Source: a phage
DNA length: 64,000 nucleotides
Strand: one strand, 5' to 3'
Assembly: GCA_012439925.1 (NCBI GenBank)
Contig: GCA_012439925.1_4519.1
Positions 3,838 to 59,146 of the stretch are shown piece by piece (the stretch's first letter is position 1; each line of letters begins with the position of its first letter). The position numbers were made by a program, and so were the translations under genes. The notes under the pieces are model-generated. The model saw only the letters and a program-made list of their open reading frames with translations. It had not been told where the DNA came from and did not search any database.

Positions 3838-5655
3838 ATGATTAAAAATGAAATTAAGGTATTGTCAGATGTAGAACATATTAAGAAACGTAGTGGTATG
3901 TATATTGGTTCTTCTGCTAAAGAAGCCCACGAGCGTTTTTTGTTTGGTAAATATCAACAAGTTGAATATGTTCCTGGTCTGGTTAAATTAATCGATGAGA
4001 TTATTGACAACTCGGTTGATGAAGCTATTCGTACATCATTTAAGTTTGCAAATAAAATTGATGTGCAAATTAAAAATAATCAAGTTTCGGTGGAAGATAA
4101 CGGACGTGGTATTCCTCAAGGTTTAGTTACCGACCAAACAGGTGAACAAATTCCTGGGCCTGTAGCAGCCTGGACTATTCCAAAGGCCGGTGGTAACTTT
4201 GGCGATGACTCTGAACGCAAGACTGGTGGTATGAACGGCGTCGGGAGTAGTTTAACTAATATCTTCTCCACGTTGTTTACAGGCATCACGTCAGATGGTG
4301 AAAATGAAATCACTGTTAACTGTTCAAACGGAATGGAAAACAAATCATGGTCTTCTAAGAAATCTAAAGGTAAAGGCACTAAAGTAATCTTCACTCCTGA
4401 TTTCACTTCATTTGAAGAGCATAATTTATCTCAAATTTATTTAGATATTACTTTAGACCGACTTCAAACATTGGCAGTCGTTTATCCTGATATCAAGTTC
4501 ACATTTAATGGTAAAAAGGTTGATGGTAATTTTAAACGATTTGCTAAACAATTTGGTGAAGATAACATCATTCAAGAAAATGATAAAGTCTCTATAGCAT
4601 TCACAACATCACCAGATGGCTTCCGTCATTTAACTTATGTGAATAACATCCATACTAAAAATGGTGGTCATCATGTTGAATGTGTAATGGATGATATCTG
4701 CGAACATCTTTTGCCCGGTATTAAAAAGAAATATAAGGGTATTGAAGTCACTAAAGCTCGTGTTAAAGAATGTCTCACAATGTTGATGTTTATTAGAGAC
4801 ATGAGCAACATGCGTTTTGATTCTCAGACTAAAGAACGTTTAACGTCAACGTATGGTGATATTCGTAATCATATCCAATTAGATGCTAAGAAAATTGCTC
4901 AGGCGCTTCTTAAAAACGAAGCCTTGATTATGCCTATTGTTGAAGCAGCATTAGCTCGTAAATTGGCGGCAGAAAAGGCTGCAGAAACTAAAGCAGCTAA
5001 AAAGGCAACTAAAGCTAAGGTTCATAAGCATATTAAAGCTAACCAATGTGGTAAAGATGCAGATACGACATTGTTCTTAACAGAAGGTGATTCGGCAATT
5101 GGATATCTCATTGATGTTCGTGACCGTGAACTACACGGTGGATTCCCATTACGTGGTAAGGTGATGAATAGCTGGGGTATGTCATATGCTGATATGATGA
5201 AGAACAAAGAGCTCTTTGATATCTGTGCTATCACAGGTCTTATTCTTGGTGAAAAGGCAGAGAATACGAACTATCGTAATATTGCAATTATGACTGATGC
5301 CGATCATGACGGCCTTGGAAGTATTTATCCTGCTTTGCTTGCTTTCTTTAGTAATTGGCCTGAATTGTTTGAACAAGGACGTATTCGCTTTGTTAAAACA
5401 CCTGTAATTATTGCACAAATTGGCAAAACTCAAAAATGGTTTTATACTGTAGCTGAGTATGAAGAAGTTAAAGATACGCTGCCTAAGCATAGTATTCGAT
5501 ACATCAAGGGATTAGGCTCCCTTGAAAAGTCAGAGTATCGTGAAATGATTCAGAACCCTGTGTACGACGTAGTTAAACTTCCTGAAAATTGGAAAGAACT
5601 CTTTGAAATGTTGTTGGGTGATGATTCAGAACTTCGTAAAGAATGGATGTCCTAA
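3838..5655 (+). CDS. 39: DNA topoisomerase II large subunit (GyrB-like ATPase plus Toprim), single fused ORF
   Basis: 605 aa; GHKL ATPase motifs (DNSVDEAI, VEDNGRGIP) and Toprim (TEGDSA, MTDADHDG); T4 gp39 plus gp60 equivalent in one ORF. Confidence 0.9.
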   Translation: MIKNEIKVLSDVEHIKKRSGMYIGSSAKEAHERFLFGKYQQVEYVPGLVKLIDEIIDNSVDEAIRTSFKFANKIDVQIKNNQVSVEDNGRGIPQGLVTDQTGEQIPGPVAAWTIPKAGGNFGDDSERKTGGMNGVGSSLTNIFSTLFTGITSDGENEITVNCSNGMENKSWSSKKSKGKGTKVIFTPDFTSFEEHNLSQIYLDITLDRLQTLAVVYPDIKFTFNGKKVDGNFKRFAKQFGEDNIIQENDKVSIAFTTSPDGFRHLTYVNNIHTKNGGHHVECVMDDICEHLLPGIKKKYKGIEVTKARVKECLTMLMFIRDMSNMRFDSQTKERLTSTYGDIRNHIQLDAKKIAQALLKNEALIMPIVEAALARKLAAEKAAETKAAKKATKAKVHKHIKANQCGKDADTTLFLTEGDSAIGYLIDVRDRELHGGFPLRGKVMNSWGMSYADMMKNKELFDICAITGLILGEKAENTNYRNIAIMTDADHDGLGSIYPALLAFFSNWPELFEQGRIRFVKTPVIIAQIGKTQKWFYTVAEYEEVKDTLPKHSIRYIKGLGSLEKSEYREMIQNPVYDVVKLPENWKELFEMLLGDDSELRKEWMS

Positions 5656-5697: not shown

Positions 5698-6798
5698 ATG
5701 AAAGTTATGTTTATCCCATCTCGCGCAGTCCCATTTAACCCAGAACGTGTACAAGGTGGTCTTGAAGCAGTACATTTAAATGTGTTGAAATATCTTGTGT
5801 CCATCGGTGCTGATATTGATTATATCGGCTTTGATAATGACACATTTGGTGATTGGAAGGTTAATCATCATCCTGTTGGTCATCTGACTAAATTCAGTCT
5901 AGGTATGAGTTATACTATGGCTCGTAAGATTGTTGAACTAGCCGGCATTAATGAGTACGATTTCGTTGTTACAATGGAACCGACCAAACTAACCGTTCAG
6001 GCAATTAAAGACGCAGGTCTTTCTAAAGTTCATAAGAATTTTATGGCAACACCATTTGAACCAGTATCTCGTGGCATTGTTCAAATTTGGGACCAGACTA
6101 TTCAAATTCATAAGAACGGTGGTAAGAGTTATGCTCCTACTAAAGCCTTCCGTGAATTTGAACGTAAATATTGTTATATGACTTCAGGTCTGACTGACAA
6201 AATTGATTATGATTATTGGCGAGCAAATCCGTTGTTTGAAGCCGAAGATTATCCGGTTATTTGTTTGAATGAGAAACCTGAAGTTCTTCCGGCGACTGAT
6301 CTGATTATTAGTGCACAACGTTATGACACTAAAATGCGTCGTACTGATGTTGCTCTTGAAGCGATTAAAGCACTAGGCGAAAATGGTATTGGTTATTGTC
6401 CTAGTAAATGGGCACCACCGGCTAAGTATCCTGTTATTATTGATGCTCCACACGGTGAAATCATGGAACGTCTTAAAACAGCTAAAGCACTTATCAATAC
6501 GTGTCCTGACACGGGTACGGTAGAGAATAGTTCTATTGAAGCCATCTCTAAAGGTGTCCCTGTAATTCAGTTAGTTTTTAAGGATTATCCTCATGCGACA
6601 TTCGAATACGACCCAGATACTGTGCGTGTAGAAATTGATTCCTCTACTCCTAAGAAAGAAGTAGTTGCGCTTTACACAAAAGCTGTATTAGAATTCACTG
6701 ACACATACGAAGCTCGAGTTAAACGTGCTGAAGCAGTATGGAAGAAGTATAACCGAGATGCAGTTGTTGCGATGTGGGATAAAATCTTCACAGCGTAA
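5698..6798 (+). CDS. putative GT-B fold glycosyltransferase (candidate DNA hydroxymethylcytosine sugar transferase)
   Basis: 366 aa; N-terminal Rossmann-like MKVMFIP...GGLEAVHLNVLKYL and C-terminal E-x7-E-like ENSSIEAISKGVPVI resemble GT4-type glycosyltransferases; located between gene 39 and rIIA, where T4 has no glycosyltransferase. Confidence 0.5.
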   Translation: MKVMFIPSRAVPFNPERVQGGLEAVHLNVLKYLVSIGADIDYIGFDNDTFGDWKVNHHPVGHLTKFSLGMSYTMARKIVELAGINEYDFVVTMEPTKLTVQAIKDAGLSKVHKNFMATPFEPVSRGIVQIWDQTIQIHKNGGKSYAPTKAFREFERKYCYMTSGLTDKIDYDYWRANPLFEAEDYPVICLNEKPEVLPATDLIISAQRYDTKMRRTDVALEAIKALGENGIGYCPSKWAPPAKYPVIIDAPHGEIMERLKTAKALINTCPDTGTVENSSIEAISKGVPVIQLVFKDYPHATFEYDPDTVRVEIDSSTPKKEVVALYTKAVLEFTDTYEARVKRAEAVWKKYNRDAVVAMWDKIFTA

Positions 6799-7103: not shown

Positions 7104-9317
7104 ATGATTATTGAAACGGCTAAAGAAACGATTATTGGTTCAGGCGGTAAGAGCACAGCATTCACTATTCAAGGCAATAGCAAAGTTTATAAGATTTTGT
7201 CTAATGACCTTTATACAAACAAAGAATTGGCTTGTGTACGTGAATTAATTACAAACTGTATCGATGGGCAAATTCTTAATGGTTGCACTGATAAGTTTAT
7301 TGTTCAGGCTCCAGGTCGTTTAGACCCACGCTTTGTAGTTCGAGACTTTGGTCCTGGTATGAGCGATTTCACCATTAGAGGTAATGACGAAGAGCCAGGA
7401 ATCTATAACTCATATTTTGCTTCAACTAAAACATCGAGTAACGATTTCATCGGTGGATTCGGACTCGGCTCTAAAGCTCCGCTAGCATATACCGATACGT
7501 TTAACCTTACGTCTTATCACAACGGCGAAGTTCGTGGTTACGTAATCTACCAAGATGACACGGGTCCACAAATTAAGCCGACCTTTGTAGATAAGATGGG
7601 TCCTGATGACCGTACTGGTGTAGAAGTAGTTGTACCGGTTAACCCGGAAGATTTTGAAAAGTTCGCATCCGAAATTGCATATGTTATGCGTCCTCTAGGT
7701 GATATTGCAGAAGTTCGTGGTGTTAAAGATATTAAATACTTCCCTGAATTTGACGATGTATATTTGGCCAAGGAAGCTCCATGGGGTGAACGTGGTAATA
7801 TCATGGCTGTTTATGGCGGTATTGTATATCCAATCGGAAGTGTTATTAAAGAACAAACATGGATGATGACACGATGCACTACAGCTTATATTAAATTCCC
7901 TATGGGTGAACTAGATGTAGCCCCGTCTCGTGAAGCATTGTCATTTGACAAACGTACAGTAGCAAATATCCATAAACGCGTTGCAGAAATCGATGCTAAA
8001 TTGTTCGCTGAAGATTCTAAGAAATGGATTGATTGTAAATACCCACGTCATGTGTTCCGTGAAATTGATTCTCTTGGCTATACCGCTCGTAAATACATGG
8101 AAAAGGCCGGGTCTAATATTGAATCACTGAAATACTCTAAAGAACAACTAACTTATTCTGAGTTGTACAAACGTTTTAAAATGGGGCCTGAGTGGTGTAA
8201 TCTTGGCGTCGTATACGATATCGTTGAATCCCCTCGTCTTCGTCGTATTCGTGAAAGTGGTAGCTCATCATCAACTATTTCAATTAACAGCCTGATTGGC
8301 ATTAACATTAAAAACGTTGAAATTGTTATTGACGACGTTAAGGGACGCGTTCCATTAATGCGAGCTCTTAATTCAATTGAAATGTCTAAAGACGAGGTTA
8401 AATTAACCGGTAAAGTTCCACGCGGTTTTGGTAAAAGTGTACTATTCGTTGACCCTACAGACGAAGATGCAATGAAACTTCTGGAACGCCTTAAAGTTAT
8501 CTTTGATGGCGACAACATTAACATGTACAAGACTTCAGAGCTTTTACAAATCGTTAAGCCATGGATTGAAGTCAGGAAACGGACTAATGAGCCTCGTCCT
8601 AAATCGCCAAGTGCTCATCGATTCTTTAAGAATGAAAACGATGTTTGGGTATCAGAAGACCTCTTTATTCCGGCAAGTGAAGCAGATGAAATCCAAGGTT
8701 ATGCTATAGTTCGTAATCGTTCTAATGCTGAATGTCTTGACGCAGATAAAGGTTGGTTGAACTATGACTCCAATTTCTTGACCCGTATTGCTGATTTGTC
8801 AGGTATTAAAGAGTTCACTGTAGTTCGTCCACAGATTGCTAAGAAAGTTCGTAAACTTGGTGAAGTAGAATGCTTGTTCGAAAAATCAATTAATGACTAT
8901 ATTACGCTAATCGATAAAGTGGATTATGATGAGTATGTATCACCAAGTCGTAGAGCACAGCCTTATTTGAATCATATTACTCGTAATGAAGAGCTTAACT
9001 TCCTTAGTAAGTATTTTAGCTCTAAAAACAAAGAAATCAGTAAAGATTTTGCAAAACTCTCAACAGTAAATAATCGTTGGGGATGGAATCGATTCTCAGG
9101 TGCTACTAACAGAGAACTGAATAAAAAGTTAGAATTGTGTGCTAAAATTTTCGATAAGCTTAAAGATAATGCTTACGATAATGATGATAAAATGGTTATT
9201 GAATTCGAAACCAATTATCATATTGTGTCAGACTACATGGGACGACGTGGTACTCTTTCTAAAGAACAGGTCGCTCAAATTGTTAAATTCATGAAGGCCG
9301 TGGAAGCGGCCAAATAA
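7104..9317 (+). CDS. rIIA: rIIA membrane-associated protein
   Basis: 737 aa (T4 rIIA 725 aa); synteny gene 39 - rIIA - rIIB; N-terminal sequence closely matches T4 rIIA as recalled. Confidence 0.85.
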   Translation: MIIETAKETIIGSGGKSTAFTIQGNSKVYKILSNDLYTNKELACVRELITNCIDGQILNGCTDKFIVQAPGRLDPRFVVRDFGPGMSDFTIRGNDEEPGIYNSYFASTKTSSNDFIGGFGLGSKAPLAYTDTFNLTSYHNGEVRGYVIYQDDTGPQIKPTFVDKMGPDDRTGVEVVVPVNPEDFEKFASEIAYVMRPLGDIAEVRGVKDIKYFPEFDDVYLAKEAPWGERGNIMAVYGGIVYPIGSVIKEQTWMMTRCTTAYIKFPMGELDVAPSREALSFDKRTVANIHKRVAEIDAKLFAEDSKKWIDCKYPRHVFREIDSLGYTARKYMEKAGSNIESLKYSKEQLTYSELYKRFKMGPEWCNLGVVYDIVESPRLRRIRESGSSSSTISINSLIGINIKNVEIVIDDVKGRVPLMRALNSIEMSKDEVKLTGKVPRGFGKSVLFVDPTDEDAMKLLERLKVIFDGDNINMYKTSELLQIVKPWIEVRKRTNEPRPKSPSAHRFFKNENDVWVSEDLFIPASEADEIQGYAIVRNRSNAECLDADKGWLNYDSNFLTRIADLSGIKEFTVVRPQIAKKVRKLGEVECLFEKSINDYITLIDKVDYDEYVSPSRRAQPYLNHITRNEELNFLSKYFSSKNKEISKDFAKLSTVNNRWGWNRFSGATNRELNKKLELCAKIFDKLKDNAYDNDDKMVIEFETNYHIVSDYMGRRGTLSKEQVAQIVKFMKAVEAAK

Positions 9318-9326
9318 GGAAACATT

Positions 9327-10262
9327 ATGTACAATATCAAATGCTTGTCCCAAGAAGAACAGTTAGAAGCTTACGGACTGGTTAAATCAGGCCAATGGAC
9401 TCGTCAGGAAATTGCTGATTACTTCAATATTTCCACCGACACTCTTCGTAAGATTGTTAAGAATTTTAAAGCTGAAGAGAAAGCCGCTGAATTTGAAGAC
9501 GAAGAACAGGTCCCAGAAAATAATGAACCTATTATTACAGGTCATCGTCCAGAAATCGTATGGAACGCGTCATCTAAATTTATTTCAATCATTGAAGGAC
9601 GCGTAGCATACAATGCGACCCCATCAAGTCATGCAAATTTTGAAGAAATTAAAGCTAATCTGGTCGCAGGAAACCTTAGTAAAGCTGTCGAACTTATTAA
9701 CATCAAGAAAGCTATTACTAAGTTTGTTGACGGTAATGTTACTATTGAAGGTGGTAGTTTATTTTATCAAGGTATAGAAATTCGTTCAGGACTGGTTAAT
9801 CGTATTATTGATTCCATGGAAAAAGGCGAAGACTTTAAATTCTATCTGCCGTTCCTTGAAAACCTGTTAGAAAACCCAAGCGAAAAAGCTGTACAACGTT
9901 TATTCGACTTCTTGGTTGCAAACGATATTGAAATCACTGAAGATGGGTATTTCTATGCGTGGAAAGTAGTTCGTAAAGACTATTTAGACTGCTATAGTGG
10001 TACATTTGATAACTCCCCAGGTAAAGTTGTTTCAATGCCTCGCACTCGAGTTAACGACGATGATACTCAAACCTGTTCTCGCGGTCTCCACGTTTGTGCT
10101 AAATCTTATATTCGCCACTTTGGTTCAAGCTCAGATAAAGTTGTTAAGGTTAAAGTTCATCCACGTGATGTTGTATCCATCCCAGTTGACTATGGTGATG
10201 CTAAGATGCGTACTTGTCGTTATGAAGTAATTTCAGACGTTACTGAATTATTTGCAGAATAA
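9327..10262 (+). CDS. rIIB: rIIB protein
   Basis: 311 aa (T4 rIIB 312 aa) immediately downstream of rIIA. Confidence 0.85.
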   Translation: MYNIKCLSQEEQLEAYGLVKSGQWTRQEIADYFNISTDTLRKIVKNFKAEEKAAEFEDEEQVPENNEPIITGHRPEIVWNASSKFISIIEGRVAYNATPSSHANFEEIKANLVAGNLSKAVELINIKKAITKFVDGNVTIEGGSLFYQGIEIRSGLVNRIIDSMEKGEDFKFYLPFLENLLENPSEKAVQRLFDFLVANDIEITEDGYFYAWKVVRKDYLDCYSGTFDNSPGKVVSMPRTRVNDDDTQTCSRGLHVCAKSYIRHFGSSSDKVVKVKVHPRDVVSIPVDYGDAKMRTCRYEVISDVTELFAE

Positions 10263-10267
10263 TAATT

Positions 10268-10290
10268 GGGGACTTCGGTCCCCTTTTTCT
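10268..10290 (+). terminator. intrinsic terminator after rIIB
   Basis: GGGGACttcgGTCCCC hairpin followed by TTTTTCTTT. Confidence 0.7.
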
Positions 10291-10302
10291 TTAGGGGTAA
10301 TT

Positions 10303-10590
10303 ATGATTCATCCATTTGACGTATCAGAATCCAAAATTGCTAATCTTCGTGGTCATCATAAGTGTAAATCAGTTTATTGTGCTAAATTGGTAAAACATCC
10401 TGGTGATGCACACTACGGCTGGTTAGAATGCGACGAAGTTGTTATTGAAATCCCACCGGTAGATGCTAACTATCTTGAAGAAGGAGACCGCATTTATTTT
10501 GGCGAACTACACATCAGAGGTATCTATGGTAAAGACGAACTTGGGACTGTTGAGACTGAAGAATCTTCCGACATTTATCCTGTCGAATGA
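10303..10590 (+). CDS. hypothetical protein
   Basis: Start trimmed to MIHPFDV with RBS AGGGGTAA just after the terminator; 96 aa. Confidence 0.5.
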   Translation: MIHPFDVSESKIANLRGHHKCKSVYCAKLVKHPGDAHYGWLECDEVVIEIPPVDANYLEEGDRIYFGELHIRGIYGKDELGTVETEESSDIYPVE

Positions 10591-10606
10591 GTTTTTGACT
10601 AGTGAA

Positions 10607-11083
10607 ATGAAAGTGAAGATTGCTGACACCGCTCGGTATTCCCTGAGCCAAAATCCAGACCAAAACAAAGAAGATGTAGTTCGACGTTGTAAGGTTGCAG
10701 TCTTTGCAGAGTATGTAGTAGCAAATTGGCTAGACGGATATGTTAATAAAGGTATTGAAGATGTAGAAGACCCGTACACGTATGCATGGGACGTGTTAGC
10801 CCATCCCAAATATTGTGGAATTCGTGTAGAAGTCAAGACACATCAGATGGATTCTAAATGGATTTCTGTTACCACAGGATACAGTGGTGATTATCCGGGT
10901 GGCAACGGAATCAACATAGGGCCCTTCCTTAATCATCGAGTCGCTGACTGTATTATTATATTGAATGTCAAAGAAACCTCACCTGACGTCTTCTCTTATT
11001 CTATAAAGTTCGTGGGAGACCATGAAGACCTAAAGAAAATCGTCCGCAAGAGCAACTACAACGGGTGGTATCTTCATCTTTAA
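10607..11083 (+). CDS. hypothetical protein, possible denB-like (endonuclease IV) by position
   Basis: 158 aa from ATG 10607 (upstream part of the track ORF overlaps the previous gene); lies between rIIB and ndd as T4 denB does; no motif verified. Confidence 0.3.
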   Translation: MKVKIADTARYSLSQNPDQNKEDVVRRCKVAVFAEYVVANWLDGYVNKGIEDVEDPYTYAWDVLAHPKYCGIRVEVKTHQMDSKWISVTTGYSGDYPGGNGINIGPFLNHRVADCIIILNVKETSPDVFSYSIKFVGDHEDLKKIVRKSNYNGWYLHL

Positions 11084-11095
11084 TTTCATAAAAGT

Positions 11096-11125
11096 GTTTA
11101 CAACTAAGTAGGACTATGATATAGT
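11096..11125 (+). promoter_or_regulatory. T4-type early promoter with embedded inverted repeat
   Basis: GTTTAC 11096-11101; -10-like TATAGT near 11120; inverted repeat AGGACTA / TAGTCCT spans the -10. Confidence 0.5.
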
Positions 11126-11151
11126 AGTCCTATCTAAAAGAGGATAACATC

Positions 11152-11415
11152 ATGAAATTTAAATTTTTCTACGCAAAACATAAAGTAACAGGCGAATTTG
11201 TTTCAATGTACAACACCGCAGATGACGAAGGGATGATTTATACTCATTTAGGTCTATCTCATTGGGACTCAGACGTGCCTTATATGTCATCCGAAGCCGA
11301 AATAACTCGTTTAGTTAATGGACATATGAATGACCATTTTGGTGTTATTCTTTCTAAAGACCTTAAAGAGGTTATCAACAAAGGATATATGGAACTCACG
11401 GAAGTTGAGATATGA
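11152..11415 (+). CDS. hypothetical small protein
   Basis: 87-aa ORF with RBS AAGAGGA. Confidence 0.5.
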   Translation: MKFKFFYAKHKVTGEFVSMYNTADDEGMIYTHLGLSHWDSDVPYMSSEAEITRLVNGHMNDHFGVILSKDLKEVINKGYMELTEVEI

Positions 11416-11607
11416 GCTCTAAAATGTGGATAGGAATATGGTTGCTTAGTATCCCAATGATTTGTATAATATTTTCAATTGTGTTGAGGTACTTATGAAA
11501 AATGCACTTCTTATTGTACTAAGAACATTTTGTGATACGGTTTTTTACATTGCATGTTCGTTCACTGGAACATGGTTGGCTTTAACATATTTTAATGTAA
11601 TTTAATT

Positions 11608-11638
11608 GTTTACAACACAATAGGATTATGGTATAGTA
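11608..11638 (+). promoter_or_regulatory. T4-type early promoter-like element
   Basis: GTTTAC 11608-11613 followed by AGGATTATGGTATAGTAGTCCT, a variant of the cassette at 11096. Confidence 0.4.
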
Positions 11639-11666
11639 GTCCTACTTAAACATGAGGAATACAAAA

Positions 11667-11867
11667 ATGGCTAAGCTTTTTAAAGATGTTGAAATTGGTG
11701 AAAAATTTGTCCTGAATAATGGACAGCAGCTTATTCGTGTAGCTTCTATAGCTGGACAAACTCATAACTGCATCGCCCCAACGTGTTGGACCCGATTCTT
11801 TATCGAGGATGACACTGAATGTTTAACTGTCGAAGAGCTTTTTGAACGTTCTGATATGGCCGAATAA
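11667..11867 (+). CDS. hypothetical small protein
   Basis: Start MAKLFKD with RBS GAGGAA; 66 aa. Confidence 0.45.
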   Translation: MAKLFKDVEIGEKFVLNNGQQLIRVASIAGQTHNCIAPTCWTRFFIEDDTECLTVEELFERSDMAE

Positions 11868-11869
11868 AA

Positions 11870-11899
11870 TTGTACAAACTCTTGAGAGCAGAGTATAAT
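11870..11899 (+). promoter_or_regulatory. early promoter-like cassette with inverted repeat around TATAAT
   Basis: TTGTAC -35-like, TATAAT 11894-11899, flanked by GAGAGCA / TGCTCTC; near-identical cassette at 40193-40228. Confidence 0.45.
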
Positions 11900-11944
11900 G
11901 CTCTCATGGATTACAAAAAACATTAATCAATTGAGGAAATTAGC

Positions 11945-12391
11945 ATGTCCAAATATTTAACTCGTAAAGACCTTCTGGCAGTTGGCGGTGAAGTTGTTGC
12001 AGTAGTTCGTAATGGCGAATACGGTTCTGAAGTTTCTAAAGAGTTTCGTTCTCGTGAAGGTTTTTACTTCTTTGTTAAAGGTTCATCTGATTGGCGACAA
12101 GTGGCAGCACGATTCTTTGTAGGACGTCAACGTTCTAAACAAGGGTTGGATGCAATTCTTTCTCACATTCGTCAAGGCCGTTCGCAACTAGCCCGTACCA
12201 TGGGTACTAATAATATTGAATATGACGTAATCTTTGTTTCAGCCAAGAACATGAAACCCCTGACTACTGGTTATGGTAAAGGACAATTGGCTCTAGCGTT
12301 CACTCGCAACCATACATCAGAATATCAAACACTCACTGAAATGAACCGTCTTCTGGCCGATAATTTCAAATTTATTCTGCAGAGTTACTAA
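11945..12391 (+). CDS. ndd: nucleoid disruption protein
   Basis: 148 aa; strong similarity to T4 Ndd as recalled (FYVGxQRSKQG, SHIRQxRSQLART, [21 protein letters not shown], MNRxLADNFKF). Confidence 0.8.
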
Positions 12392-12397
12392 TTTATA

Positions 12398-12427
12398 CAG
12401 GCCTAACTTAATAGGCCTTTAATTTAT
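12398..12427 (+). terminator. stem-loop / terminator after ndd
   Basis: AGGCCT-aacttaat-AGGCCT hairpin followed by TTAATTT. Confidence 0.45.
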
Positions 12428-12443
12428 TTGTGAGGTAATTAAA

Positions 12444-12590
12444 ATGGTATCATGGATTATTGCATTGTTGTGTTGGTCGTTTTTATTCGTTAACACTTTA
12501 GTTACAGGCGAAACAACAGTATTTCAACAGGCCGTATCACAAGGCACCTTAGCGGTCTTAGCTCTTTTTAACGTGTTAAAAGGCGAGTAA
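12444..12590 (+). CDS. small hydrophobic membrane peptide (48 aa), ac/52.1-like position
   Basis: Not in ORF track; RBS GAGGTAA; predicted single transmembrane helix (WIIALLCWSFLFVNTLV). Confidence 0.4.
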   Translation: MVSWIIALLCWSFLFVNTLVTGETTVFQQAVSQGTLAVLALFNVLKGE

Positions 12591-12730
12591 TGATTAAGAA
12601 AATCTTAGCAGGAGCCTTCGGGCTCTTGTTGTTGCTTACGGTTCTGTACTATGGTGTGTTGTTTGGACTAATCCAAGTAGTGCTTTTCATTTCAGATGTT
12701 ATAATGGATATTCGTTCATTAATATGGTGA
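12590..12730 (+). CDS. small hydrophobic membrane peptide (46 aa)
   Basis: Not in ORF track; start overlaps previous stop (TAATG); hydrophobic core AGAFGLLLLLTVLYYGVLFGLIQVVLF. Confidence 0.4.
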   Translation: MIKKILAGAFGLLLLLTVLYYGVLFGLIQVVLFISDVIMDIRSLIW

Positions 12731-12734
12731 AAAT

Positions 12735-14060
12735 ATGCAATTGAATTCTCGTAATCTAAAAAGTATTATTGATAACGAAGCCTTAGCATATGCGATGTAC
12801 ACCGTTGAAAACCGTGCAATCCCAAACATGATTGATGGATTTAAGCCGGTTCAACGTTTTGTGGTTCATCGTGCATTAGATTTGGCTCGTGGTAATAAAG
12901 AAAAATTTCATAAACTTGCGTCAATTGCAGGCGGTGTTGCAGATTTAGGTTATCACCATGGTGAATCTTCTGCACAAGATGCAGGTGCATTGATGGCTAA
13001 CACATGGAACAACAACTATCCACTGTTAGATGGCCAAGGCAACTTTGGTTCTAGAACAGTCCAAAAAGCTGCAGCATCTCGTTATATTTTTGCTCGTGTA
13101 AGTAAAAATTTCTATAACGTATATAAAGATACTGAATATGCTCCAGCTCATGAAGATAAAGAACACGTTCCACCAAAATTCTATCTTCCTATTATTCCGA
13201 CAGTTCTTTTGAATGGTGTATCTGGTATTGCAACCGGTTACGCAACAAATATTCTGCCTCATAGTTTTAAATCGGTAAAAAAGGCTGTATTACAAGCTCT
13301 TCAAGGTAAAAATGTCACTAAGCCAAAAGTTGAATTCCCGGAATTCCATGGTGAAGTACATGAAGTTGATGGGCGTTATGAGATTCACGGAACATATAAG
13401 TTCACATCTCGCACTCAAATGCAGATAACTGAAATCCCATATAAATTCGACCGTGAAACGTATGTGAGTAAGGTTCTTGACCCGTTGGAAGACAAAGGTC
13501 TAATCTCATGGGAAGATGATTGTGGTGAACACGGCTTTGGGTTTAAGGTGAAGTTCCGTAAAGAGTACTCGCTTCCTGATGATGAAGAGCTACGTCATGA
13601 AAAAATCATGAAAGATTTTAGTCTCATCGAACGTCGTTCACAAAACATCACAGTGATTAATGAAAAGGGTAAATTAGCAGTCTACGATAACGTAGTGGAC
13701 TTAATCAAAGATTTTGTTGAAGTCCGTAAGACTTACGTTCAGAAACGTATTGACAACAAAATCCTTGAATCTGAAAAAGCATTTAAACTGGCTTTTGCTA
13801 AGGCACACTTCATCAAAAAAGTTATCAACGGTGAAATCGTGATTCAGGGCAAGACTCGTAAAGCTTTGACTGAAGAGCTAGCACAAATCGAAATGTACAA
13901 AGAACATGTCGATAAACTGGTGGGTCTTAACATCTTCCATATCACTTCCGACGAAGCACGTAAACTAGCAGAAGAAGCTAAAGCTAAGAAAGAAGAAAAT
14001 GAGTATTGGAAGTCTACTGATGTTGTGACAGAGTACACTAAAGACTTGGGGGCACTTTGA
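12735..14060 (+). CDS. 52: DNA topoisomerase II medium subunit (GyrA-like breakage-reunion domain)
   Basis: 441 aa (T4 gp52 441 aa); GyrA-like N-terminal motifs; synteny ndd - 52 - motA. Confidence 0.9.
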   Translation: MQLNSRNLKSIIDNEALAYAMYTVENRAIPNMIDGFKPVQRFVVHRALDLARGNKEKFHKLASIAGGVADLGYHHGESSAQDAGALMANTWNNNYPLLDGQGNFGSRTVQKAAASRYIFARVSKNFYNVYKDTEYAPAHEDKEHVPPKFYLPIIPTVLLNGVSGIATGYATNILPHSFKSVKKAVLQALQGKNVTKPKVEFPEFHGEVHEVDGRYEIHGTYKFTSRTQMQITEIPYKFDRETYVSKVLDPLEDKGLISWEDDCGEHGFGFKVKFRKEYSLPDDEELRHEKIMKDFSLIERRSQNITVINEKGKLAVYDNVVDLIKDFVEVRKTYVQKRIDNKILESEKAFKLAFAKAHFIKKVINGEIVIQGKTRKALTEELAQIEMYKEHVDKLVGLNIFHITSDEARKLAEEAKAKKEENEYWKSTDVVTEYTKDLGAL

Positions 14061-14136
14061 GTGCCCTAGCCTTAGGATTTCTCGGTGCAATAGCTGCACT
14101 AGTGATTTGGCTGTATTGGTTGGACAAACATGATTA

Positions 14137-14158
14137 GGGAGCTTCGGCTCCCTTTTGT
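14137..14158 (+). terminator. intrinsic terminator after gene 52
   Basis: GGGAGCttcgGCTCCC followed by TTTT. Confidence 0.7.
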
Positions 14159-37650: not shown

Positions 37651-38784
<1,134 letters not shown>

Positions 38785-40550: not shown

Positions 40551-41636
<1,086 letters not shown>

Positions 41637-41637
<1 letters not shown>

Positions 41638-58026: not shown

Positions 58027-59146
58027 TTTTAACCTTAACTGGGTTAACAGGTTCTAACACCATTGAGTTGGTAAACATGTACAGATGAGTTTGTGAGTTG
58101 TTATTTGATAACTCATGAATAACTTCATCCACGTAAAATTCGGATTTGAATTGGTTCTTTTGGTCAACAAATATAATTTTAGTAGCAGGCGTTATGTTAA
58201 AATTACCTGTAGTAGTGCATTTAGCATAACCGTCGTATTGAGCCATTGTCTGAAGACGACTTGCTTCTTCAAATCCGTTACGATAGGTCATTTCGGAATA
58301 TCCGCCGGATCTTGACACAAGAATAGCATTATCGCCGTCGCCAGTAACAATAACTGGAATAGATGTATCTAAAAATGAATGGGCGAATATTGTGGCGTTT
58401 TTAATAGGGTCTCTTGTAAATTGGTTGGCTTTAGTCATCCAGGTAAAATCCCATACTAATGGATACTCAAGCTCTTGAATATACTGACCTACAGTATTTG
58501 GCTCACCTACAATCATCTTAATGCCTTCTTGACCAATAAGAGTATCGTAGTCAATCATGTTTACGCCTAAAATATCTTGCCATACGAATACGAACTTATC
58601 ACTCGCTGTAGCAAGTCCTAATTCTCTGACATATGCCAAATAATCATCAAATGTGCTTGTCCAAGGAATATCAGGAACATAAGCATTAATAGTGTTTATT
58701 GGCGGAGTAATTAACGTACGGTCTTTATATATGACACCTAACATTTCACGTATAGATTCGCCTGCGTCCGGGAAGAACGGACGCCCAAATTTAAGGTTCT
58801 CTATAGAATGTATTGTTCCAAGCTCAATTGCAATAATATTGTCACCTTTTGAGTCCACAGACACAGAATAATGTCTACATCCGTAAATTCGAGTTCTAAC
58901 TTGGAGAGGTGTGTTTGAATTTGAAACAGAGATTTGGACTATCTGCCTACCATCCATTTTAGTGTGGATGTTTTTAGTGTCATAAAATTGAAGAATCCCT
59001 TCATTTCTTCCATATAGCGAATCTCGCATGGTTAAAGTTGTTATTGTTGCAGCGAGTTCAACGTATCTATTTTCTTGCCAAGCCGAATAATCTTGATATA
59101 ATTTAACGCTTAAGTTAGGATATCCTGGACGTTGGAATACTGTCAT
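57974..59146 (-). CDS. 27: baseplate hub subunit
   Basis: 390 aa (T4 gp27 391 aa); synteny 51-27-28. Confidence 0.85.

Follow-up and report, generated by a model that had tools for sequence, protein, structure and literature searches.

The interval between rIIB and topoisomerase gene 52 in the 64,000-nucleotide stretch of phage DNA analysed here (the window) is very probably the usual set of early accessory genes of a T-even phage of the RB69-like group (Mosigvirus), one that has been catalogued before, and stp is not among its genes. Nothing in the block is new, the RB69 record of 2003 having an identical gene order. Positions 10263-12734 share 96-98% nucleotide identity with more than 150 deposited phage genomes, and the annotations of RB69, ATK47 and CAU_ECP01 display the same gene order as the window, which in RB69 (AY303349) reads RB69ORF272c, denB, RB69ORF270c, ndd.1, ndd, ac and 52.1 on the same strand. 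The RB69-type block differs from that of the window by point substitutions only (93.6% nucleotide identity between RB69 and the window over 11380-11660), and RB69 and more than 150 other Mosigvirus genomes resemble it both in being without stp and in the positions of promoters and terminators. The RB69 record leaves two ORFs of 28 and 36 aa unannotated and uses a short denB start. Every plus-strand ORF of the block matched a PHROG or Pfam family, and all the ORFs described in an earlier note on this DNA were found on that strand; minus-strand ORFs of 109, 53, 46 and 43 aa were without PHROG match and were treated as antisense artefacts. A search of positions 10000-13000 against Rfam returned a single match (E 0.68), far under the gathering score.

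The earlier note had equated the interval with the denB-ndd-stp-ac region of T4, and T4 homologues bear out the underlying synteny (rIIB-denB-ndd-stp-ac-52), the full T4 order being rIIB-denB.1-denB-ndd.6...ndd.1-ndd-stp-ac-52.1-52. In tblastn searches of the window, T4 DenB, Ndd.6, Ndd.1, Ndd, Ac and gp52.1 matched the corresponding ORFs and nothing else (72%, 54%, 45%, 59%, 37% over 35 aa and 70% identity, respectively), and T4 Ac, gp52.1, Ndd.6 and Ndd.1 share PHROGs with their respective counterparts. Conversely, denB.1, ndd.2, ndd.2a, ndd.3, ndd.4, ndd.5 and stp are present in T4 and have no homologue in the window by tblastn, whereas the window carries a 36-aa orphan and intact versions of a DUF7418 ORF and of ORF87, of which only remnants exist in T4. 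Both blocks are rich in early promoters and non-essential (PMC6071114): the T4 sa-delta-9 deletion, in which 52.1 through denB are gone, is viable and has lost the stimulation of phospholipid synthesis (PMC6071114).

The ndd-ac junction and stp

Stp is a basic, hydrophilic 26-mer with 18 almost invariant N-terminal residues and acts as an activator of PrrC (PMC3014915); T4 Stp is thus 26 aa long, and not 29 aa as the earlier note had it. The ndd-ac spacer of the window (12392..12443, plus strand) holds a terminator hairpin (12399-12418, -10.5 kcal/mol) and the ribosome-binding site of ac. No ORF fits into its 52 nt, in which no stp remnant is detectable, and the region from ndd to ac encodes no product of about 26 aa that carries the conserved Stp motif (phrog_6763) at its N-terminus. 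The earlier note's failure to find stp was upheld by homology searches. With T4 Stp, tblastn found no homologue in the interval and at best E 0.14 on the window as a whole, at 58943-59005 (minus strand); this segment is in frame inside the gene of baseplate hub gp27, the same sequence is present in the gp27 of a relative, and we regard the match as chance similarity. A hidden Markov model of four Stp homologues reached at best 10.7 bits on the window and the whole CAU_ECP01 genome, as against about 70 bits for true positives. Beyond the 64 kb, the absence of stp rests on the complete genome of this 96-98% identical relative (CAU_ECP01). The junction was also without stp in 30 listed relatives, each of which matched in one uninterrupted alignment, and in the annotated records of RB69, ATK47 and CAU_ECP01.

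The earlier note had related stp loss to the avoidance of PrrC, which is reasonable biology (PMC3014915) but is not specific to this phage, and a loss is indistinguishable from a gene never acquired. We consider it possible, albeit doubtful, that the Mosigvirus ancestor had stp and that losing it was an adaptation by which the phage no longer triggered the PrrC anticodon nuclease. In keeping with such a loss, stp directly follows ndd at this same junction in T4, in a Dhakavirus and in a Gaprivervirus, the window keeps the flanks (the ndd stop, the hairpin and the GTGAGG ribosome-binding site of ac), and stp mutations rescue T4 pnk/rli mutants on prr+ hosts (PMC3014915). However, stp looks mobile, since it is 94.9% identical in nucleotide sequence between T4 and the Dhakavirus where the adjacent ndd is 69% identical, and Tlsvirus U136B and further siphoviruses have it as well; its presence elsewhere may therefore reflect gains and not ancestry. 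The spacer without a detectable stp remnant also argues against a loss, as does the retention of the tRNA-repair pair formed by Rnl1 (rnlA, 37660-38784) and Pnk (40738-41637), which already neutralise PrrC. As the junction is without stp in all inspected relatives, the event, if it took place, would be old.

Small hydrophobic peptides

The two tandem peptides that precede gene 52 are the orthologues of T4 Ac and gp52.1. The first (12444..12590, plus strand, 48 aa) belongs to phrog_2501 (E 4.5e-22), the family of the acridine resistance/sensitivity membrane peptide in which T4 Ac is also found (E 2.2e-25); it is matched by T4 Ac in tblastn (E 5e-5), carries its hydrophobic helix at the N-terminus and bears the name Ac in the RB69 and ATK47 annotations. 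The second (12590..12730, plus strand, 46 aa) lies directly before gene 52, which starts at 12735, and overlaps the end of ac by its start codon (TAATG). It belongs to phrog_3595 and to Pfam PF24129 (DUF7396; E 2.4e-22, 79.2 bits for a cut-off of 27) and is 69.6% identical to T4 gp52.1 (tblastn, E 2e-17). Both are hydrophobic, with maximal 19-residue Kyte-Doolittle averages of 2.06 and 2.34 that place them at the 96th-97th percentile of a background formed by the window's 233 small ATG-ORFs. The earlier note had given exact coordinates for this pair and had recognized its hydrophobic character, but had left both peptides as unknowns; ac is thus present. By analogy with T4, whose genetics are the only source of this phenotype, the 48-aa peptide may take part in acridine uptake or sensitivity. 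Even for T4 itself, the roles of Ac, gp52.1, Ndd.1 and Ndd.6 are ill defined.

Two micro-ORFs are located further upstream. The first (11412..11498, plus strand) encodes a 28-aa, single-helix peptide that aligns with T4 Ndd.6 over 28/28 residues (53.6% identity, tblastn E 2e-8) and shares phrog_8851 with it. Its ATG overlaps the ORF87 stop (ATGA), it differs by only two conservative substitutions among 9 Mosigvirus genomes, and a database-wide tblastn gave matches in 747 phage records, most of them weak (E 0.02-0.6). It ranks as strongly hydrophobic on the same scale (2.62, 99th percentile). The second micro-ORF (ORF36; 11495..11605, plus strand) falls into phrog_18561 (E 1.4e-26) and was found in 153 phage records, all of them relatives of the window; among 1.84 billion representatives it forms one cluster only, with no homologue outside Mosigvirus. 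Its hydrophobicity is unexceptional (1.71, 89th percentile); with 38% G+C in the window, the threshold of 1.6 is exceeded by 14% of the small ORFs, all frames included. Both micro-ORFs of the earlier note therefore exist, albeit at other coordinates: its 36-codon ORF was shifted by 6 nt, and its 24-codon ORF, if counted from the second methionine, was likewise misplaced by 6 nt (18 nt from the annotated 11412). It had also left the first of them unassigned, now an Ndd.6 orthologue, and its description of both as hydrophobic holds for the 28-aa peptide but singles out nothing exceptional in the 36-aa one.

That the micro-ORFs, and the 36-codon one especially, are chance open frames in an A+T-rich intergenic stretch running from ORF87 to the promoter that follows appears improbable. 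We estimate that about 7% of random 36-codon frames would stay open at the composition of the window, 14% of its small ORFs have the look of a transmembrane segment, and the RB69 and ATK47 records annotate neither of the two micro-ORFs. ORF36 in particular shows no third-position excess in its substitutions (6/5/6 across codon positions in 9 genomes) and, as stated above, is confined to Mosigvirus. The identity of the 28-aa peptide to T4 Ndd.6 persists, however, despite diverged surrounding DNA. ORF36 for its part has a GAGG Shine-Dalgarno sequence at ideal spacing and an ATGA overlap, exactly fills 110 nt that would otherwise be empty, and keeps its frame in the 9 genomes, including a 3-nt in-frame codon deletion in two relatives. 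It moreover occupies the position that ndd.5, likewise a small hydrophobic ORF coupled to ndd.6, holds in T4. Position is all that the two have in common: T4 Ndd.5 gave a best tblastn E of 1.4, elsewhere in the window, and belongs to another family (phrog 5011 as opposed to 18561), and we rejected ORF36 as a diverged ndd.5. Taken as a Mosigvirus-only orphan, ORF36 is weakly suggested to be coding by its start signals and its conserved frame.

DenB, Ndd and the small soluble proteins

The earlier note had assigned denB by position only, to an ORF at 10607-11083. The guess was right, and homology now carries the assignment: this ORF belongs to phrog_1360 (E 8.6e-82), and residues 1-185 of T4 DenB align end to end with 10526-11080 (tblastn, 72.4% identity, E 3e-94), which extends the alignment upstream of the annotated start. 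Mosigvirus records annotate a 158-aa DenB from 10607. The true start is most likely 81 nt upstream at 10526, as judged from conservation, giving a 185-aa endonuclease IV (10526..11083, plus strand). A GAGG lies 5 nt upstream of the ATG at 10526, both the Shine-Dalgarno sequence and the start codon are conserved in Klebsiella phages and a Dhakavirus, and the long form scores 298.8 bits against phrog_1360 (E 3.1e-89, profile positions 1-188), compared with 274.4 bits for the short form. Residues G71, S176, G180 and W181 of the 185-aa form are all identical to those of T4; S176 is tied to dC-specific cleavage (PMC2175332), and G71, G180 and W181 are retron Eco2 escape sites (PMC12916289). Comparison of DenB with PDB sequences gave only matches to DHFR (E about 0.05), which we consider spurious.

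The final 65 nt of the preceding gene are shared with denB. This ORF (10303..10590, plus strand, 95 aa, RB69ORF272c) belongs to Pfam PF24193 (DUF7418; E 1.4e-37) and phrog_2237 (E 1.5e-35), and tblastn detected homologues in 670 phage records of several genera. Its AF2 model (pLDDT 75) is all-beta with a disordered tail at residues 81-95 and has no fold match in the PDB. ORF87 (11152..11415, plus strand, 87 aa, RB69ORF270c) belongs to phrog_2390 and was modelled with a pLDDT of 85.5. Fold searches with the two models assigned no function, and neither protein has a sequence match in the PDB or a match in NCBIfam. The invariant GELHIRGIYG motif of DUF7418 encodes the Shine-Dalgarno sequence and start codon of denB, and the overlap is kept in at least four groups of T-even-like phages, T4 retaining only a remnant of the upstream gene. 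It nevertheless seems very unlikely that the DUF7418 protein serves DenB, a toxic nuclease, as its dedicated partner or regulator, whether as an immunity, timing or anti-retron factor. If it did, this role might partly account for the escape of the Mosigviruses Bas46 and Bas47 from retron Eco2 despite the presence of denB in both (PMC12916289); the mere presence of DUF7418 as the explanation of this escape is weakened by divergent homologues in many Tequatrovirus genomes.

Downstream, the ndd.1 orthologue (11667..11867, plus strand, 66 aa) belongs to phrog_2183 (E 6e-31), the family of T4 Ndd.1, and is 44.6% identical to the T4 protein (tblastn, E 5e-12); the start at 11667 has a better Shine-Dalgarno sequence than another ATG upstream at 11652. 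The nucleoid disruption gene ndd (11945..12391, plus strand, 148 aa), which the earlier note had correctly recognized, is matched by Pfam PF06591 over the whole profile (E 2e-89, 297.7 bits for a cut-off of 25) and is 58.7% identical to T4 Ndd (tblastn, E 5e-52). That one of the DUF7418 ORF, ORF87, Ndd.1 or ORF36 is an unrecognisable functional analogue of Stp is hardly credible, even though these four block ORFs are without known function, anti-restriction peptides evolve fast and fold searches gave no excluding assignment: none of the four resembles Stp in length, charge or sequence, and Ndd.1 coexists with stp in T4, as does DUF7418 in the Dhakavirus, which argues against redundancy.

Early transcription signals and the role of the block

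Transcription signals are interspersed with these genes. An intrinsic terminator hairpin follows rIIB (10268..10283, plus strand; GGGGACTTCGGTCCCC and then a T run, predicted folding energy -12.0 kcal/mol) and is an annotated terminator in phage ATK47. At 11079..11138 (plus strand), a first putative PeSL-like element combines the denB stop codon, an early promoter (TTTACA-17-TATAGT with TG, scoring 10/12 in the promoter scan) and a stem-loop over the -10 box (-13.5 kcal/mol). These 60 nt recur as a direct repeat with 80% identity at 11591..11650 (plus strand), where the hairpin has a predicted energy of -11.0 kcal/mol. Upstream of ndd, a further early promoter (TGTACA-17-TATAAT; 11871..11899, plus strand) also has a hairpin over its -10 box (-13.9 kcal/mol). 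The cassettes fit the definition of PMC2839356, namely a sigma-70-like promoter and a stem-loop after an upstream stop, repeated within a hyperplastic region. Like the PeSLs of T4-type phages, they have the upstream stop in an A+T-rich stretch, a promoter of the TTTACW-N17-TAYWAT type, a stem-loop overlapping the -10 box and repeats that flank small ORFan-type genes (PMC2839356; PMC4122927). The predicted stem of the window (TAGGACTA/TAGTCCTA) is unlike the G-rich stems of the RB49 and phi1 PeSLs.

We propose that the block is the Mosigvirus counterpart of a non-essential early region, termed "hyperplastic", which in T-even phages lies between rIIB and topoisomerase gene 52. It would be transcribed rightward by read-through past the rIIB terminator and from the three strong early sigma-70 promoters, each with its PeSL-like stem-loop, and many of its small genes would be translationally coupled through ATGA or TAATG overlaps and, for denB, through a start within the 3' end of the DUF7418 ORF. 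If the biochemical roles of the T4 orthologues apply, its products would include two proteins of host-DNA takeover, namely DenB as a dC-specific single-strand DNA endonuclease IV and Ndd in nucleoid disruption, next to three probably soluble small proteins (the DUF7418 ORF product, ORF87 and Ndd.1) and four small hydrophobic peptides (the Ndd.6 orthologue, the 36-aa ORF product, Ac and gp52.1) that most likely enter the inner membrane. A phage of this type, which does not encode stp and keeps the Pnk and Rnl1 repair pair, would possess no inhibitor of the Stp type against type Ic restriction enzymes, and PrrC would not be triggerable through Stp.

The block matters little beyond correct annotation, for which three corrections follow: the "unknown TM peptides" are Ac and gp52.1, one of the micro-ORFs is Ndd.6, and Mosigvirus denB is probably annotated 27 codons short. 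Since DenB is the trigger of retron Eco2, the exact form of the Mosigvirus enzyme and the gene that overlaps it upstream could merit a targeted experiment. As the Mosigvirus junctions inspected are without stp, these arabinosyl-hmC phages should not trigger PrrC via Stp, and the absence of the gene is relevant to predicting which defence systems restrict Mosigviruses.

Gene content and regulatory elements of the interval

Megablast of the stretch between rIIB (9327-10262, itself preceded by rIIA at 7104-9317) and topoisomerase gene 52 (12735-14060) matched positions 10263-12734 to 165 phage records, 153 of which cover at least 80% of the query in one place. Coverage is complete at 96-98% identity in each of the 30 matches listed, the best being Mosigvirus phages of Escherichia and Shigella (ATK47, Shf125875, RB69 and others), and phage CAU_ECP01 is collinear with the entire window at 96-98% identity. 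The finding therefore falls in a well-sampled, already annotated phage group. As an accessory region the block is known, annotated and typical of the genus, and it leaves only three loose threads: a denB start that is probably mis-annotated, the conserved placement of that start within a DUF7418 gene, and the gene status of a 36-aa orphan ORF. An earlier note had described this block as a set of unknown ORFs, ndd and hydrophobic micro-ORFs; the observation is real, its reading right only in part.

Apart from denB, the plus strand carries a 95-aa ORF corresponding to RB69ORF272c (10303-10590; Pfam DUF7418, E 1.4e-37; phrog_2237), the 87-aa ORF87 corresponding to RB69ORF270c (11152-11415; phrog_2390), a 28-aa ORF of the Ndd.6 family (11412-11498; 54% identity to T4 Ndd.6, E 2e-8, both in phrog_8851), the 36-aa ORF36 (11495-11605; phrog_18561), a 66-aa Ndd.1 orthologue (11667-11867; phrog_2183, 45% identity to T4), Ndd as previously proposed (11945-12391; Pfam PF06591, E 2e-89), and orthologues of Ac (12444-12590; phrog_2501, common to T4 Ac; tblastn with T4 Ac, E 5e-5) and gp52.1 (12590-12730; Pfam DUF7396, 70% identity). 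No family was matched by the minus-strand ORFs of the interval, and tblastn detected no homologue in the window for T4 denB.1, ndd.2, ndd.2a, ndd.3, ndd.4 or ndd.5. AlphaFold2 models of the DUF7418 ORF (pLDDT 75, all-beta) and ORF87 (pLDDT 85.5) returned no informative structural neighbour.

In T4 (NC_000866), two genes that the window has in full survive only as deletion scars on the minus strand, both missing from the T4 annotation. At about 6150-6245, 37 codons of the DUF7418 ORF are left (MIYMNIGDSDIKESLNAENESWVTETISDSDIYPIEQ), and they overlap the start of denB; at about 5495-5525, only the terminal 8 codons of the ORF87 family remain (MKIAEIEL), in coupling with ndd.6. In a metagenomic protein, P0014, an ORF87 homologue continues in frame into an Ndd.6-like peptide (…AEIGTMSSLWWCFVWLISIPLICLTFTFVMRLL); the fusion may be genuine, or it may stem from an error of sequencing or gene calling where the ATGA junction lies. 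Additionally, a 26-aa hydrophobic ORF (14057-14137; MSALALGFLGAIAALVIWLYWLDKHD) begins at the gene 52 stop codon, in the position of T4 motA.1.

Strong early-type promoters are predicted at 11097-11125, 11609-11637 and 11871-11899 (the last within the element 11860-11915), all three with a stem-loop over the -10 box, and terminator hairpins after rIIB (10268-10283) and ndd (12399-12418). The first two promoters belong to direct repeats of 60 nt that are 80% identical and spaced by 512 nt (11079-11138 and 11591-11650). Both copies begin at the upstream gene's stop codon and carry TTTACA-17-TATAGT, with stem-loops of -13.5 and -11.0 kcal/mol. This architecture is that of the promoter-early stem-loop (PeSL) cassettes of T4-type phages (PMC2839356; PMC4122927), and between the copies lie ORF87 and both micro-ORFs, an arrangement as in PeSL-mediated modular shuffling.

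The start of denB

The ORF at 10607-11083, previously proposed as a possible denB equivalent by position, matches phrog_1360 ("DenB-like DNA endonuclease IV", E 8.6e-82), but only from profile position 28. Its identity was thus borne out, its start was not: tblastn aligned the full length of T4 DenB (185 aa) to 10526-11080 (72.4% identity, E 3e-94), and the 185-aa form matches phrog_1360 from position 1 with a gain of 24 bits over the shorter form. GAGG lies 5 nt before ATG 10526; no equivalent Shine-Dalgarno sequence precedes ATG 10607. Klebsiella phages share the long N-terminus (MVKTN.GL.RL), the CAGAGG context and the overlap with an upstream DUF7418 ORF; in a Dhakavirus the long N-terminus and the overlap are present, the annotated start lacking the CAGAGG context. 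Furthermore, residue numbers in the literature (S176 in PMC2175332; G71, G180 and W181 in PMC12916289) fit a 185-aa protein, and all four residues are conserved in the window. From these sequence comparisons we conclude that denB most likely extends over 10526-11083, with a 65-nt overlap with the preceding DUF7418 gene; the records of RB69, ATK47 and CAU_ECP01, which give it 158 aa, probably annotate it too short.

The denB Shine-Dalgarno sequence and ATG (within 10516-10590; CAGAGGTATCTATG) lie inside the invariant GELHIRGIYG motif of the DUF7418 ORF. One frame of the overlap encodes the predicted disordered acidic tail of the DUF7418 protein, whose disordered part in the model is exactly the denB-overlapping part, and the other the conserved DenB N-terminus. 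Annotated overlaps of this pair measure 68 nt in Klebsiella phi1_146043, 53 nt in Kpn BM7 and 29 nt, as annotated, in Dhakavirus vB_EcoM_005.

Retron Eco2 is triggered by DenB in T2, yet the BASEL Mosigviruses Bas46 and Bas47 carry denB and are not restricted by it (PMC12916289; bioRxiv 10.1101/2024.04.04.588119). All three Eco2 escape-site residues are kept in the window DenB, so that either a different enzyme behaviour or a phage counter-measure is indicated.

Hydrophobic peptides and the status of ORF36

The maximal 19-residue Kyte-Doolittle values of the 28-aa peptide (2.62), Ac (2.06) and gp52.1 (2.34) fall in the 96th-99th percentile of 233 ATG-ORFs of 24-50 aa from all six frames of the window; the two tandem peptides previously described as transmembrane are indeed hydrophobic, and now have identities. 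Against the same background ORF36 (1.71) stands no higher than the 89th percentile, the usual threshold of 1.6 being exceeded by 14% of the background ORFs; hydrophobicity alone is therefore no proof that ORF36 is a gene. Matches to it come only from 153 records, each of them a relative of the window, and within 1.84 billion representative proteins it belongs to one cluster only. In favour of a gene, ORF36 has a GAGG Shine-Dalgarno sequence, overlaps the 28-aa ORF at ATGA, exactly fills 110 nt that would otherwise be empty, has lost a codon in frame in two relatives and takes a position analogous to that of T4 ndd.5; against it, the 17 variable sites in 9 genomes are distributed 6/5/6 over codon positions. 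This orphan is a putative gene.

T4 with the sa-delta-9 deletion, which takes out everything from 52.1 to denB inclusive, is viable, although its burst is half of normal, and it has lost the post-infection stimulation of phospholipid synthesis (PMC6071114). By analogy, some of the small peptides may have a membrane-directed role, which would fit this phenotype.

Absence of stp and retention of tRNA repair

In T4, a Dhakavirus and a Gaprivervirus, the stp frame (26 aa in T4) opens on or beside the stop codon of ndd and closes shortly before the ribosome-binding site of ac. The ndd-ac junction of the window is a 52-nt spacer holding a hairpin and the ac ribosome-binding site, and the RB69 annotation has no stp there. 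In agreement with the earlier note, no recognisable stp was found: tblastn with T4 Stp gave a best E of 0.14 in the window, and an HMM built from T4, Dhakavirus, Gaprivervirus and Tlsvirus peptides scored at most 10.7 bits, versus about 70 for true positives, on six-frame peptides of the window and the complete CAU_ECP01 genome. The E 0.14 match was rejected, being an in-frame segment of gp27.

Unannotated stp genes directly follow ndd at 701-778 of L018 (Dhakavirus vB_EcoM_005) and 701-781 of L019 (VR7). Mosigvirus may have lost stp or may never have gained it. The shared position in three other genera speaks for loss; however, stp is 94.9% nucleotide-identical between T4 and the Dhakavirus as compared to 69% for the adjacent ndd, and Stp homologues also occur in siphoviruses, both of which indicate horizontal exchange. 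This difference in identity suggests that the stp cassette was exchanged horizontally in recent times. In the T1-like siphovirus Tlsvirus U136B, a Stp homologue (1501-1581 of L020) precedes a polynucleotide kinase/phosphatase gene (2151-2714) by about 600 nt; trigger and repair thus travel together outside T-even phages. Similar N-terminal Stp matches were seen by tblastn in many Drexlerviridae-type genomes.

By inhibiting type Ic restriction enzymes, Stp unmasks the anticodon nuclease PrrC; the cut tRNA is repaired by Pnk and Rnl1 (PMC3014915). The window encodes both RNA ligase 1 (37660-38784; Pfam T4_Rnl1_C and RNA_lig_T4_1) and polynucleotide kinase-phosphatase (40738-41637; HAD_PNKP and AAA_33), and thus this stp-less phage keeps the tRNA-repair pair that counters anticodon nucleases. 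In Mosigvirus the DNA is arabinosyl-hydroxymethylated, and restriction-modification systems are largely ineffective against it (PMC6024577; PMC8594841); an anti-restriction peptide may therefore be dispensable.
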